A stretch of DNA of 5,542 nucleotides, from the IMG/VR virus record IMGVR_UViG_2529293069_000017; one strand, given 5' to 3'. Positions within the stretch are counted from its first letter, which is position 1. Every line of letters starts with the position of its first letter. This DNA comes from a virus. Taxonomy: Duplodnaviria; Heunggongvirae; Uroviricota; Caudoviricetes. Shown piece after piece: positions 1-5,542 of the stretch. A program made the position numbers.

Positions 1-3000
1 AAAACCTCATTCAGTAATTCATATCAGTTTGCAGGATGTTTCATTAAATAAAATAAAGGGTAATGTTCATTTCAATTACCCTTTATAACGAAGTTTCCTC
101 TGGTATCGTCATAAATGCATTCTTCATGTTTTACAATTATTGATGCCGTTATTGGTTCCCGGGTCAGTGGGTGGGGTAAGCCTTCACCAGTCAAACGAGA
201 AAATGCAGCGGCATCAAATAAAGTACATACATCTGAACCATCTGAATTCTTCACAAAAATACCTTTTTCAGGCTGCTCCAGTGTAATTGGACATTGAATA
301 GCCTCAAGCGGGCACTGAAGTCTCTCTGGACAAACAGAAAACTTACATTGAGATATTTTGTTCTGAATACTCTCTTGCGATTGTGCTTCACCTGAGTCCG
401 AAAGCATACTTAGCATTCTCTCACCAAGGGCTCGAGGACCACTATTAAATCCCAAAAGCAATAACTCAGAAAGCAATCCGCCATTACCGCCACTGGATGA
501 AAAGCGCCCATTAGTAGAATCATACACAATACTGACAGTTTCACCACCGACTGTAATATCTCCGCGCCCATTGGCTACAATTCGGGCACGAACAACCTCC
601 ACCCCAAGATTAAATGAATGTGATCTAATATCTGAGGTTAATGGCATAACAAAGCTCCCTATTTTAATTTGAACTCCAGACTTAAATAGCTGTAACAAAC
701 ATCCCCCATACGTGACAACAAAAACCAGAGCAGGACTCCGGTTTTTGTGAACCCGTCGGCTATTTCATCCCGCCAATATTTTCCCACCTCCCGTCAGCAC
801 GCAGAATTTGCAGCGGTCTTACCACGCACTGTATCTGCTTTTTATCCGCATCCAGTATCACCACCTGTGTGATTACCCTGTCCTGCTCCGGAATAATGCC
901 ATTCTCATCTGACTCCAGGATGTCTGCCGGCCCCAGTCGCAGTTGTACTGTAAGCGACTGCCCGTGTTCACAGTCATCATGCTTTCCGCAACCACACAGA
1001 CGCTCCATAAGCTTTCTCAAAATATTCATGTCATTCTCCTGTTCTGCCTGTATCACTGCCCACTTCATCCAGTCCCTTAACATCCTGCCACGGCCCGTCG
1101 CCAAACCTGACCTGCAAATGCCGAAACAGCCCCTGAACCTGTGTGGCATCTTTGGGGTCAAGAAAGGTCAGTCCGGTGATGAGTGCACCATCTGTATCCG
1201 GGAACCAGCCATGGCTGTTTGTCTCAATAATGCTCGCCGGCCCCAGACGAAAACGGATTTGTGTCTCCCCCGGGTCGCCCTTCGGTCCCTGAGGTCCGGT
1301 TGCCCCCACCGGGCCAGCCGCACCTGTTTCTCCTTTCGGTCCCTGTGGGCCTGCCGGGCCTGCTGCCCCGGTGTCTCCCTTTGGACCCTGTGGACCTGCA
1401 TTTCCCGTCAGACCGGTCTCTCCCCGCTCTCCCCTGTCACCTTTCGGCCCCTGCGGGCCTGCCGGACCAGCATCACCTGCCGGTCCCCGTTCGCCGGTTG
1501 CCCCGACAGGGCCGGTGTCACCGCGCTCTCCCTTATCACCCTTCGGCCCCTGAGGACCCGCGGGCCCCTGTTCCCCCTTTGGCCCGGGAGGTCCCACCAC
1601 GGTGGGGATTCGGTTTACGGCCTCTTCCGCCGCTATCCTGCTTTGTTCCGCTGACTGTGCGCTTTCTGCTGACTCCCGGGCTTTTTCTGTTGCGGTCGTT
1701 GCATCCCTGGCTGCATTACCGGCTGCACTTTCTGCCGTCTTTCTTGACAATTCAGCTTCTGCTGCACTTTGTGATGACTCACTGGCTTTTTGAGCGGCCG
1801 CAGAGGCCGAGGACGAGGACGCCTCCTCTGACTGCTTTGCAGCGGCTGCACTTTCTGCCGCCTGCCGGGCTGACTCCGATGCATCCCCTGCTGAAGTGTC
1901 AGCATTTGCAGCGCTCTCTTCTGCCTGACTGGCTGATATGCCGGCATTCCTCGCGGACGTCTCCGCCTCTCCGGCATTCTTCTTCGCCTCCTCAGCGTGA
2001 CGCGCCGCTTCTTCCACCATCAGTTCAAAACGACGCAGTGCCTCCGGCCGGACGTCATCCTCCGACATGGCACCGAGAAAATCATTCAGCGTACCCGGTT
2101 GAGAATCTTCATACACGGTGATGGTCCCGGCATGTGACGGCGGGAATCCTTCCACCAACAGAATGACGCTGTACTGACCGTACTCAACGTCCATGCTGTA
2201 ACGACCGGCTTCATCCGGATTTTCAGAGGCCACCGTGTTCACCACCACCGTGCTGCTGGTCCGTCTGGCTTTCAGTTGAATGGTGCAGTTCTCTACCGGT
2301 TTTCCTGTGCCGTCTTTCAGTACACCTGAAATCTTTACTGCCATATTCACCCCACAAAAAAGCCCGCCTGAACCGGCGGGCTGTCATAACACTGTGTTAC
2401 CTGAATCAGAACTTATAACCGACACCCACGATGAAACCGTCAGTGCGCCAGTCGCCACTGCCGGAGCCTTCATAAGCAATATCAATGGCCACGGATTCGG
2501 TCGGGTTAAACTGCACGCCAGCCCCCCACGCCAGAGACGTGTTGCTGTGGCGACCGTCATCACTTCCGGTCAGCACATCGTGCGTTTTCCCCTTGTTGTC
2601 AGTTACGCGGAGATAATCCCCGGAGAAAGTCGACACACGGCTGTAAGCCACTCCCGCCATCGCATACGCGCTGAACCATTCATTCACGCGCACAGACGGC
2701 CCCGCCATTACGCTGAACCAGCGGTTACGAACGGAATCTTCATGCCAGCGGGTATCGCTGTAATGGGTCAGCTGGCGATTCTTGTCTCCTGCATAGCTGA
2801 ACGACGTCACCATCCCCAGTGTGTCCGTAAACTCATAACGGTATTTCACGTTAATCCCGTTCAGTTCATCGCTGCCAGGAACGTTCGTCGAGACATGAAG
2901 ATACCCCGCGCTCAGCGTGGACTGATGTTCAGACGCCCATGCAGGCGCACCGGATACGGCCAGACAAATGGCTGCGGACAAAATGGCGGCATAAAGTTTA

Positions 3001-5542
3001 CGCATAATTACCTCTCGCTTTTCTGCAATAAAAAAGGCGTCATTTCTGACGCCCGTTCTGGGTTATAAAATTCAGCTGATACTGATACCTGCTGTGGATT
3101 TTTTCATCACCACAACCAGCAGATCGCTGATACTGGTTGTTGGTGTCCAGTTATTCGCTCCTGATGAAGATACGGTGAATGTCAGTGTCAGCGTCCCCTG
3201 TCCGGCAGGCATATCTATAACTGAGGAAAATACGCCCTGAGCATCCGTCGTGGACTGATTAAAAATCTCCTGACCATTGCGGGTCACTCTTAACCGGCAG
3301 GTTGAATACCAGTATGACTGTTGGTTATTACTGTTGAAATTCTCATGCTTACCACCGCGGAATAACACTGGCGGTATCATGACCTGCCGGTCAAATTTCT
3401 GATCATCACTGATTCTTACCGTGATGGTGCCACTGGCATAACTGTTCGTGCGGGGGAAAGACTTGCTGACCGTTTTGACAATATCACCTTCAATCTGGTT
3501 GGCTGACAGTTTCCCCTTAATCTGACAGTTCTCATTAATCGTGACGTTGTTGAGCGTCCCGGAATTCGCATTCACGTTACCGCTGATATCAGCATTTCTT
3601 GCGGTCAGCCTGCCCTCCGGCGTCAGGGAAAACGTCGGGGGATTGCCGGACGAGGTGATACTCACCGCAAACAGTCGCTTCAGGAACACATCGTTCATGA
3701 ACAACTGATTCCCCTGCGCCACAAATAACGGCGTGCTGTTGCCGTTCTCCGGATTTATCATCGCGATACGGTCAGCCAGCAGCAGTATGTTGCTCAGTGG
3801 CTGGCCATCAGTATCCTCAATCCCTGCACCAATCCCGGCCACATAGGGAATGCCGTCTTTCGTTTTTTGAACCTTCAGCATGTACAGCGCAGCCAGGTCA
3901 TTATTTGTGTCCTTCTGCACGCGCTGTATCTGCTGTATGGTGGCGCTCTGGTTCTCCAGTGTTTTGTTGACCGTCTGTGTGATTTCATTGCGGGTTTCCG
4001 TGATGCTGGTCTTCATCTCCGCCATCTCATCTGCAAGCTGGCTGTTATCTATCAGTTCCCACAACCCCTGAGCCAGATGCAGTTTTCCTATTTTTTCCCG
4101 GAAAAATTCCAGATACCCTTCACCATCATTGCTGGGCTGCCCGCTGACTTCCACAAACGCAGATTTCCCCACCAGGTTGACGCTGCGCACGTAAAACCAG
4201 AAATCCTTCCCGGGCTTAATGTGCGGGCCGGATACACTCCACTGACTGCCGGTCCCCAGATAACGGGCAGAGGTTTCCACCTGAGATGTGTCTGCGAATT
4301 TTTGCCTCCGAAAACCAGAACTCAAACTGTACCGTCGGGTCATACACCGCAAGACGCGGGACCGCTGTTATCTGAAAATAGCCCAGTGTCAGCTCAATCG
4401 TGGCGGGTACCGCAGGTGCATTAATCCTGAACGTGGTGGTGGCCGGTTCCCCCTGCTGGCCATAACTGTTAATCGCCCTGACCGTCAGGGTGTATTCCCC
4501 CGGCGGCAGACCGCTGAAACGGTGCTCTGTATCCGCGGTGATGGCGGTGGTCACCAGACGGCTGTCCTGACCGCTTCCACTGGTCAGGCGCAGACTGAAG
4601 CGCACGCCCTTCACCACCCGCGGCGTGTCCCATTTCACCTGCGCCAGATACTGGCCGTCAGCTGCGCTCACCTCCACCGTCAGGTGCTGCACTGCCGGAG
4701 GGATGACGCTGTTCAGGGTGCCTGACTGCGGCTCAAAGCGGGCACCGTTATCCACGATGGCTTCTTTCTCCGGCACATGCTGCACTGCCGTGATGGCAAA
4801 GGTACCGTCCGTGTTTTCCCGGATGGAAACACAGCGGAACAGGCGACGACGCAGTGACGGCAGGGAGAGTCCCCACACACCGTATGTCTCCACGCCATCC
4901 GGCAGGGTACTGACCTGTATCCGGTCCGGCGCGGGGTGTGCGGTGATGTCCACACTCACCGGCTTACCGCTGCCGTTAATCAGGTTCACCGTGGCGGCAC
5001 CTGTCTCCGGCAGGGTCACCTCACGGTCCAGTGTCAGGGTGCGGGTGGCAGCATCAATGGACAGGACACGTCCGCCGGTCATGGTCCCGGCATAGTCGTT
5101 ATCACAGATTTCAATAATGTCACCGGGTGTGTGACGCAGCCCCTGTGACCCGAGCGTGAAATCCACCGTCTGCGTTTCCAGCAGTCCGGTCTTTATCACC
5201 CACAGCCCGGCACGGTGGGCCTGACCGCGACTGGTGCAGCCGAACGCATCCATCTTCAGCAGGTTGCGTCCGTAGCGCAGTATGGCTTCCGGGTCTTCCA
5301 CCAGTTCCGTGGAGGTCTGCCAGCCGTTATGCGGGTCGACGTAACTGACCTCCACCGCAGTATGACGGTCCTTCAGGGCGCTGAAACTGTAGCGGAATCC
5401 CACACCTTCATTGTCAGCCACCACATCACTGTTTGTGTAGGGCCACACCACATCTGACGGACGGTCCTGCACAAACGTCAGCGTCTGCCCGTTCCATACC
5501 GGCATACAGCGCATCGCCGAGCAGAAATCACTGAGAACGTCC

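Follow-up and report, generated by a model that had tools for sequence, protein, structure and literature searches.

The window, by which the whole analysed stretch of 5,542 nucleotides is meant, comes from the tail region of a lambda-like prophage in E. coli of the enterohaemorrhagic type. Its genes and features follow each other on the minus strand in the order J - tJ - lom - tlom - stf, where tJ and tlom denote the hairpins located after J and lom, respectively (Table 1). The J stop codon is a TGA at 3074..3072, and a 1-nt insertion near 4297/4298 splits the gene into two ORFs, a frameshift with respect to the intact J of phage Lys8385Vzw. The stf gene is of the short collagen-repeat type, starts with an ATG at 2344 preceded by the Shine-Dalgarno motif GGGG at 2353..2350, and is followed by an NleG effector gene. 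G+C values within the window range from 0.54 to 0.57 for lom, from 0.47 to 0.56 for the 3' end of J and from 0.53 to 0.69 for stf, and in this comparison the base composition of lom does not deviate from that of its two neighbours.

Table 1. Coordinates of the genes and features of the window.
Feature	Coordinates	Strand	Description and basis
Tail-tip gene J, 3' part	3072..5542	-	ORF list; Pfam Ig_J_second, Phage_Tail_Tip, Ig_GpJ_C
tJ, predicted intrinsic terminator	3027..3054	-	Stem-loop and T-rich tract; folding, shuffles, covariation, annotation in relatives
lom insertion/deletion unit (~670 bp)	2357..3031	-	RBS, lom, palindrome and tlom hairpin; BLAST of lom-less J-stf junctions
lom Shine-Dalgarno GAGAGG	3011..3016	-	Read from sequence; 5 nt before ATG
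lom	2406..3005	-	199 aa; Ail/Lom-family outer-membrane beta-barrel protein with signal peptide
6-1-6 palindrome TAACAC-N-GTGTTA	2387..2399		Between lom stop codon and tlom; conserved
tlom, predicted intrinsic terminator	2356..2382	-	Stem-loop 2382..2361 and T run 2361..2356; folding, conservation, annotation in relatives
stf-like side tail fibre gene	1031..2353	-	Collagen-like repeats; Pfam phage_tail_N, Collagen, Phage_fiber_C

The proposed membership of Lom in the Ail family was borne out by Pfam PF06316, with residues 1-199 matching positions 1-199 of the 199-position profile (E = 2e-120; 400 bits for a cut-off of 23). The protein is 96.5% identical to the Lom of phage 434 and 47% identical to that of lambda. 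All Lom proteins returned by the IMG/VR scan have 96-100% identity with that of the window; the more distant lom contexts were taken from a genome scan and from a phage tblastn search. The GAGAGG motif of lom is invariant in alignment A2, and phage 434 bears a ribosome binding site annotation at the corresponding position. The palindrome, for which 0.01 occurrences are expected by chance, is found in one copy in every lom-positive locus with this 3' flank, lambda included. An Rfam scan of the window produced two sub-threshold matches, ST7-AS1_2 and a Trp_leader overlapping tlom (21 bits vs a cut-off of 41), which were rejected as chance matches.

Stem-loop structures on either side of lom

The original prediction placed a hairpin with a T run directly after J and another directly after lom, both on the minus strand, and both were retrieved by inspection of the sequence, by folding and with a strict terminator motif. 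The tJ stem-loop (3054..3035) reads 5'-GGGCGTCA-GAAA-TGACGCCT-3', with 8 pairs, 5 of them G-C, and a GAAA loop, and lies 17 nt past the J stop codon, oriented like J itself. The stem is followed by TTTTTATT, in which a T run at 3035..3030 is continued by an A and by TT up to 3027; the resulting T-rich tract TTTTTTATT at 3035..3027 directly follows the stem on the coding strand. The tlom stem-loop (2382..2361) reads 5'-AGCCCGCC-GGTTCA-GGCGGGCT-3', with 8 pairs, 7 of them G-C, and a 6-nt loop; it is positioned 23 nt past the lom stop codon, in the orientation of lom, and is followed by TTTTT at 2360..2356, the tract TTTTTTGT again directly following the stem on this strand. As had been proposed, this second structure adjoins the stf ribosome binding site, its T run ending at 2356.

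The strict motif was defined by a stem of at least 8 pairs including at least 5 G-C and by at least 6 T in 9 positions. Exactly two matches, tJ and tlom, are present in the whole window, both strands included; 300 dinucleotide-preserving shuffles contained a mean of 0.057 matches, and none contained two. Only two non-coding gaps border lom, and each contains one of the hairpins, on the coding strand. The calculation of folding free energies suggested with the original prediction gave -13.6 kcal/mol for isolated tJ (z = -5.0) and -18.2 kcal/mol for isolated tlom (z = -4.3), values equalled in either case by 0 of 200 dinucleotide shuffles. Both hairpins are kept in the minimum-free-energy structures of their 160-206-nt contexts, in which no competing antiterminator is predicted for either, the 206 nt folded for tJ including its upstream region.

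Conservation differs in kind between the two structures. Among 15 variants of tJ, 98.3% of the cells are paired and compensatory double changes affect 5 of the 8 pairs, a level of covariation reached by 0 of 500 shuffles, and the signal collapses once the pairing partners are slid. These compensatory substitutions keep the pairing and point to selection on RNA or DNA structure beyond sequence identity. The columns T35-T38 following tJ are invariant in alignment A2, which includes lambda and Citrobacter. Among 18 variants of tlom, 99.3% of the cells are paired, all stem substitutions but one are transitions to G-U wobble, and 17 variants retain the T run; these one-sided changes include no compensatory covariation because the hairpin is too conserved. 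Homologues of tJ are annotated as terminators in phages mEp460, 434 and 21 and those of tlom in mEp460 and 434, the latter two phages having both hairpins marked as rho-independent terminators by independent annotators.

A G+C-rich stem within the ~5-14 bp expected of an intrinsic terminator, a short loop, a U run and a site after a stop codon are common to tJ and tlom, and covariation was observed for tJ. From these sequence features, both are predicted to be canonical Rho-independent terminators of the minus strand, oriented for a J-lom-stf transcript; a search of the literature found no 3'-end or termination data for this locus. The bracketing of lom by such structures is an ordinary feature, already known and annotated in classic lambda-like phages, and confirms, for a prophage from pathogenic E. 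coli, the gene order that is standard among lambdoid phages.

The lom unit in related phages

Phages 434 (OL657226.1) and mEp460 (JQ182728.1) display the arrangement of the window, namely J - terminator - RBS - lom - terminator - RBS - stf, with Lom proteins 94.5-96.5% identical to that of the window. The tlom hairpin of the window recurs in them unchanged, as does its T run, the flanks differing at a few positions, and their tJ hairpin differs from the window tJ by compensatory stem changes only. Unlike these phages, the window lacks 3 nt just past the lom stop codon, has a frameshifted J and carries the short collagen-repeat stf followed by NleG. The architecture of J-lom-orf401 (stf) in lambda is also that of the window, and the lom-stf spacer, including tlom, is ~90% identical. 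As in the window, a hairpin with a T tract is located 29 nt before the lambda lom ATG; this post-J hairpin (CGTCCG-GGAA-CGGGCG) differs in sequence from tJ, has a weaker T tract, TTTTATTAT, and bears no terminator annotation in the lambda RefSeq record. The distance from the stem end to the lom ATG is 28-29 nt in lambda and a Citrobacter prophage vs 29 nt in E. coli-type loci; the stem sequences differ and each is followed by a T tract. Two lom alleles that are just 47% identical have the 3' flank in common. A third allele from Shigella flexneri (41% identity, same flanks) was rejected, as it is a frameshifted pseudogene.

The J 3' end, tJ with its T tract, and the stf ribosome binding site and start are found as in the window in a series of lom-less phages (21, PhiR63_1, HannyBb, ev207 and others). 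In these phages, unlike in the window, the ~670-bp unit composed of lom and tlom is missing, so that tJ directly adjoins the stf ribosome binding site; tJ was seen in this position in phages 21, PhiR63_1 and HannyBb, and a single J-stf terminator is annotated in phage 21. BLAST comparison of lom-less J-stf junctions with the window yielded two HSPs, one ending at 3027 and the other restarting at 2361, with a 5-nt overlap in the query. The unit accordingly ends inside both T tracts (3031-3026 and 2362-2357), its limits being ambiguous over 5 nt of microhomology. Other junctions are located inside the tJ 5' arm in one relative (L022) and at the lom ribosome binding site in another (L005). As tJ is kept in lom-less phages, it is a component of the J-stf junction and not a structure that arose for the insulation of lom.

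The description of lom as a delimited moron cassette was therefore retained in part: lom is a discrete unit with its own tlom, present in some related phages and missing from others at the same position, but tJ also occurs where lom is missing, a promoter belonging to lom could not be detected and the G+C content of the gene is not deviant. The moron of HK97/HK022, as outlined in PMC3594210 after Juhala et al. 2000, consists of a promoter, a gene and a terminator that have joined a phage operon as one unit. Compared with that outline, lom is similar in being an extra late-operon gene of variable presence at one position, with a factor-independent terminator after it and a function of the host-benefit type; it differs by the two properties just mentioned, promoter and base composition.

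Transcription of lom and the role of the hairpins

Separate expression of lom in a lysogen, a further element of the original prediction, was taken from the lambda literature and could not be upheld from the locus itself. In the lom unit, the ATG is preceded by just ~21-26 nt, and the 23 nt separating this codon from the tJ T tract leave no room for a promoter. A consensus scan revealed no promoter on the minus strand. A position-weight matrix, applied to up to 600 nt upstream of lom in the window, lambda, mEp460 and a Citrobacter relative, revealed no sigma-70-like site above the shuffled background, the best score in the window being 8.7 vs a shuffled median maximum of 8.9; both scans are of the sigma-70 type, non-canonical or activator-dependent promoters being outside their reach. 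With so short a 5' segment and no sigma-70 match above chance, an autonomous lom transcript is hypothetical. The lambda lom, a classic prophage-expressed outer-membrane gene, was found to be transcribed in lysogens (PMC7067206, PMC1151598); its expression in a lambda lysogen was undetected in one microarray study, according to which little is known of the lom promoter (PMC2147009). A literature search on the promoter and the transcription start of lom, and on Term-seq results for this gene, yielded this last statement only.

Probably, tJ and tlom act as two canonical terminators, both passed by Q-modified polymerase in lytic growth and each stopping the unmodified polymerase in the prophage. 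Going by lambda biology, polymerase modified by Q at the late promoter would ignore both structures, Q itself being encoded outside the window, and J, lom and stf would be transcribed as one message. Such resistance of Q-modified polymerase to terminators is documented (PMC4005639), and the earlier view agrees with this standard scheme in so far as late transcription would need Q-type antitermination to reach stf. As J is frameshifted in the window, read-through during the lytic cycle may be of no consequence in this copy of the prophage. In the repressed state, unmodified polymerase would halt at tJ and at tlom: molecules drifting through J would mostly be stopped at tJ, before lom, and any transcript covering lom would stop at ~2356-2360, just before the stf ribosome binding site, resulting in a short lom mRNA protected by the hairpin at its 3' end. 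A gene of the adhesion/serum-resistance type would in this manner be bracketed such that unmodified polymerase could pass neither from the tail genes into lom nor from lom into the tail-fibre and effector genes. The efficiency of tJ and tlom and the source of lom transcription in a lysogen are what we infer in this scheme.

The shortage of space 5' of lom would also suit an arrangement in which tJ is an attenuator of lom and not an insulator. Transcription would start upstream of tJ, in the J 3' end, or overlapping the hairpin, and only polymerases reading through would express lom, setting a low or conditional level of Lom; with a promoter inside J, tJ would indeed lower lom expression instead of insulating the gene. 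The reported expression of lambda lom in lysogens, with detection differing between studies, is in line with this arrangement. It is nevertheless unlikely, since the last 600 nt of J contain no promoter-like site above chance in four lineages, the alternative antiterminator structure is not predicted, and the J 3' ends differ between lineages, with only TATAAC, without a matching -35, in common upstream of the hairpin.

Stable G+C-rich hairpins at cistron ends can block 3' exonucleases, and tJ and tlom might on this basis be chiefly RNA 3'-end stabilisers or processing barriers in the late transcript, setting the half-lives of J, lom and stf without stopping polymerase. The Citrobacter counterpart of tlom, where the hairpin is kept and the T tract is degenerate, would fit such a role. 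A pure stabiliser has no need of a T tract, however, so the near-invariance of these tracts counts against this explanation, to which we give a little less weight than to attenuation, and stabilisation would in any case be compatible with termination. It is very improbable that the hairpins represent a conserved linker or scar at module boundaries, aiding the recombination of mosaic phages and devoid of any present transcriptional role. The insertion/deletion junctions located exactly in the T tracts, the two deviating junctions in the tJ 5' arm and at the lom ribosome binding site, and the 3' flank common to lom alleles of 47% identity are all suggestive of a linker, but a linker would conserve sequence and not pairing, which is maintained in tJ by compensatory substitutions.

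Within the preferred reading of tJ and tlom as terminators, the one point of some wider interest is a lom cassette that is devoid of any recognisable promoter and has its limits exactly in terminator T tracts. Tentatively, this cassette may consist of RBS, gene and terminator without a promoter, and may have been gained, or be lost, by T-tract recombination directly behind a pre-existing tJ. For its expression in the prophage, polymerase would have to pass tJ by leaky or regulated read-through, or else start at a promoter of non-canonical type that overlaps the terminator. If true, such a cassette would be unlike the textbook promoter-gene-terminator moron, and cargo genes of lambdoid tail operons would land preferentially in the T tracts of terminators.

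Other contexts of lom

The lom of 933W-type Stx phages resembles that of the window in belonging to the Ail/Lom family and in having a hairpin with T6 ~23 nt after the gene. It differs in that it is not located between J and stf, is preceded by an AT-rich spacer of 90 nt and by no terminator, and encodes a protein of 41% identity. The microRNA-size RNA 24B_1 from the lom-vb_24B_43 spacer of Phi24B (PMC4426718) was rejected as a candidate for the present locus, as it belongs to a 933W-type lom context with a spacer of 428 bp vs 61 nt here; its authors reported it to be absent from lambda. In favour of the terminator reading, the lom homologues of 933W, PhiR12_3 and Citrobacter braakii have unrelated hairpins 22-26 nt past their stop codons, and a hairpin is visible at the equivalent place after the lom homologue of C. 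meridianamericanus.

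Gene content of the window and its terminators

All genes of the window are carried by the minus strand according to the ORF list, and their coordinates are collected in the table. The top match among complete E. coli genomes, 4,971/5,426 of which hold places related to the window, is a prophage of the O157:H7 strain 493/89 (98.9% identity). Among phage records, Lys8385Vzw, which comes from an O103:H11 strain, is closest across the lom region (99.5%). The full-length Pfam match of lom bears out the Lom-family membership proposed in the original prediction.

Genes of the window and the evidence for each
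Feature	Coordinates	Strand	Evidence
J, tail-tip, 3' 2.5 kb	stop codon 3074..3072	minus	ORF list; Pfam GpJ C-terminal domains
lom	3005..2406	minus	ORF list; Pfam Ail_Lom, 2e-120, full length
stf, side-tail-fibre	ATG 2344, end 1031	minus	ORF list; Pfam phage_tail_N, Collagen, Phage_fiber_C
89-codon ORF	1029..763	minus	ORF list; Pfam Phage_fiber_C
NleG-type effector ORF	about 647..75	minus	ORF list; Pfam T3SS_NleG

The stf product is short (437 aa) with collagen-like Gly-X-Y repeats, and the small ORF directly after it (763-1029) repeats the Phage_fiber_C domain of the Stf C-terminus. An ORF for an NleG-family type III effector (U-box E3 ligase family) is found at 75-698, 3' of the tail-fibre genes, in a segment of low G+C (0.36-0.46); effector cargo is typical at the end of a lambdoid tail operon and this placement fits. 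In J, a 1-nt insertion at about 4297-4298 (minus strand, AAAAATTCGC vs AAAAATCGC in the intact J of Lys8385Vzw) divides the gene into ORFs 5514..4216 and 4352..3072, and reflects either a defective prophage tail gene or a sequencing error.

Two elements are clearly the best minus-strand matches of the terminator scan: tJ, between J and lom (GGGCGTCA-GAAA-TGACGCCT at 3054..3035, then TTTTTATT), and tlom, between lom and stf (AGCCCGCC-GGTTCA-GGCGGGCT at 2382..2361, then TTTTTGTGGG). They start 17 nt past the J stop codon and 23 nt past the lom stop codon, respectively. Under the strict terminator definition they are the sole matches on both strands; 300 dinucleotide-preserving shuffles of the window yielded a mean of 0.057 matches and in no case two (0/300). 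The isolated folding energies are -13.6 kcal/mol for tJ (z -5.0) and -18.2 kcal/mol for tlom (z -4.3). Both hairpins are kept in the minimum-free-energy structure of longer contexts (206 and 161 nt), that of tJ in the centroid structure as well. The scan and the energies confirm what had been observed from sequence alone, namely minus-strand stem-loops with U-tracts after J and after lom, at coordinates right to within a base or two. The downstream terminator was also correctly said to abut the stf ribosome-binding site, as GGGG lies three bases beyond the end of the tlom T run (2356).

Conservation of the two hairpins

Loci carrying lom were gathered from 80 IMG/VR contigs, phage records and species-representative genomes, and comprise 28 distinct spacers upstream of lom. 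Across 15 distinct, aligned variants of this spacer, the eight-pair stem of tJ is paired in 98.3% of cells and five of the eight pairs display changes on both sides (e.g. G-C/U-A to A-U/C-G). The observed pairing and double changes were reached by 0/500 shuffles, and sliding the 3' partners of the stem drops pairing to 36-61%. Stems of different sequence follow J in lambda (CGTCCG-GGAA-CGGGCG, then TTTTATTAT) and in a Citrobacter meridianamericanus prophage (GAGCGCTC-ATTC-GGGCGCTT, then TTTTTATT), with an equal distance of 28-29 nt from stem end to lom ATG. Neither the T tract nor the lom Shine-Dalgarno sequence varies in the alignment. The covariation, the different stems at the same position and the invariant T tract provide strong comparative evidence of selection on the tJ hairpin and U tract. 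In one locus (L040) the loop reads TTTC vs GAAA, its reverse complement, on an unaltered stem and looks like an inverted loop.

Among 18 distinct variants of the tlom-side spacer, 99.3% of cells are paired. Three pairs vary, on one side each, and all substitutions but one are transitions giving G-U wobble. No double changes occur in these variants and covariation can therefore not be demonstrated for tlom, which gains independent support from non-homologous hairpins with T runs located 22-26 nt past the stop of lom homologues in 933W, PhiR12_3 and Citrobacter braakii. In the Citrobacter meridianamericanus prophage, a hairpin read from the sequence at the equivalent place (TGCCCGC-TTCCC-GGCGGGCA) has a degenerate T tract and is absent from the terminator scan output.

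The 933W hairpin (L085, 1992-2010) is clear and followed by T6, 23 nt past the stop codon of the 933W-type lom; for Phi24B, a close relative of 933W, ARNold reportedly gave no intrinsic terminator within lom or close to it (PMC4426718). In a Shigella flexneri locus (L115, 1501-2091), lom is a multiply frameshifted pseudogene with an intact terminator on either side. At 2387-2399, the interval from the lom stop codon to tlom contains a perfect 6-1-6 palindrome, TAACAC-N-GTGTTA (0.01 expected by chance), and exactly one copy is present in each lom+ locus with the common 3' flank, lambda included. Its loop is too short for a good RNA hairpin; it might be a protein-binding site. Right past the lom stop codon (2400-2405), the window lacks 3 nt (TGATTCAGG vs TGATTAGCCAGG), a difference unique to it when compared with 17 other distinct spacer sequences (about 100 loci).

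Boundaries of the lom unit and search for a promoter

Some lambdoid phages match the query at the stf start alone. In PhiR63_1, HannyBb and phage 21, stf is directly 3' of J, and their 60-nt J-stf spacer (...TATAACCCCAATACGGGCGCCAGAAATGGCGCCTTTTTTATTTGTGGAGTAAGTATGGCAGTA) has the hairpin and T tract of tJ running straight into the stf ribosome-binding site. Such a contiguous junction is found at >=80% coverage in at least 18 phage records, with further records at 79% coverage. Aligned to the window with BLAST, these junctions split into two segments, one ending at 3027 and the other restarting at 2361, with a 5-nt overlap in T-rich query sequence. Therefore, lom and tlom together form an insertion/deletion unit of roughly 670 bp with both ends in T tracts. 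Because lom-less junctions carry the same tJ, this element exists without regard to lom; it is the J-stf junction's own terminator rather than a device for insulating lom. Variant junctions occur at the same site. In PPompW_EH1992 (L131, 1652-1978) lom is cut short after about 85 codons, with an espO effector gene downstream; elsewhere unrelated sequence is joined at the lom RBS, tJ being absent (L005), or within the 5' arm of tJ (L022). These junctions suggest repeated recombination at the tJ-lom boundary.

Within the unit, the lom start codon is preceded by only about 21-26 nt, which leaves no space for a promoter. Consensus scans detected no minus-strand promoter in the window and no plus-strand promoter upstream of lambda lom, which lies on the plus strand there. 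A position-weight-matrix scan of four lineages (the window, lambda, mEp460 and the Citrobacter prophage) covered the 600 nt preceding the lom gene; in none did the top score exceed the median of shuffled maxima, and no candidate was conserved in position among them. Nor is lom set apart by G+C content. Lysogens of lambda are reported to express lom (PMC7067206, PMC1151598, PMC3594210); one array study left its expression undetected and described its promoter as little known (PMC2147009). That lom could be expressed separately is therefore a proposal drawn from the lambda precedent and not from the sequence of the window.

Proposed transcription scheme and known systems

In the preferred model, both tJ and tlom are functional intrinsic terminators. 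During lytic growth, Q-modified polymerase, which resists terminators (PMC4005639), would pass both and produce a single J-lom-stf message. In the prophage state, unmodified polymerase would halt at tJ and at tlom, and any lom transcript would end short of the stf ribosome-binding site. The terminator anatomy, its non-random occurrence and conservation, the tJ covariation and the cassette boundaries are seen in the sequences themselves; termination efficiency, Q dependence (the window does not include Q) and the source of lom transcripts are what we infer.

Lower weight is given to three other readings. The hairpins could be 3' structures stabilising mRNA, and invariant T tracts oppose this function in its pure form, just as compensatory changes oppose pure recombination linkers devoid of a transcriptional role. 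Alternatively, tJ could attenuate a promoter located inside J, which we also rank below termination at tJ and tlom.

The terminator pair around lom is an already known feature: in mEp460 (JQ182728.1) and phage 434 (OL657226.1) the homologues of both elements, one on each side of lom, carry the annotation of rho-independent terminator, phage 21 (OL657228.1) has a sole J-stf terminator annotated, and the lambda RefSeq record leaves them unannotated though the sequences are present. Modestly new is the precise placement of the cassette ends within terminator T tracts, combined with the absence of a recognisable promoter.

The lom locus is usually termed a moron. Compared with the definition summarized in PMC3594210, that of the window displays presence/absence among relatives and a downstream terminator but, as far as sequence analysis tells, neither its own promoter nor deviant composition. 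These features suggest that it works like a moron and is a candidate independent transcription unit only. The original interpretation of lom as a delimited moron cassette is partly supported: the unit with its downstream terminator stands, whereas tJ is not lom-specific and no promoter is recognisable.

Lambda-type lom was also collected from short or low-coverage contigs (L096-L109, L112-L114, L117, L119-L120, L122, L124-L128), some of about 48.4 kb, in assemblies labelled Amycolatopsis, Neobacillus, Kitasatospora, Pseudomonas, Shewanella, Paenibacillus and others; these public assemblies are almost certainly contaminated with lambda control DNA.
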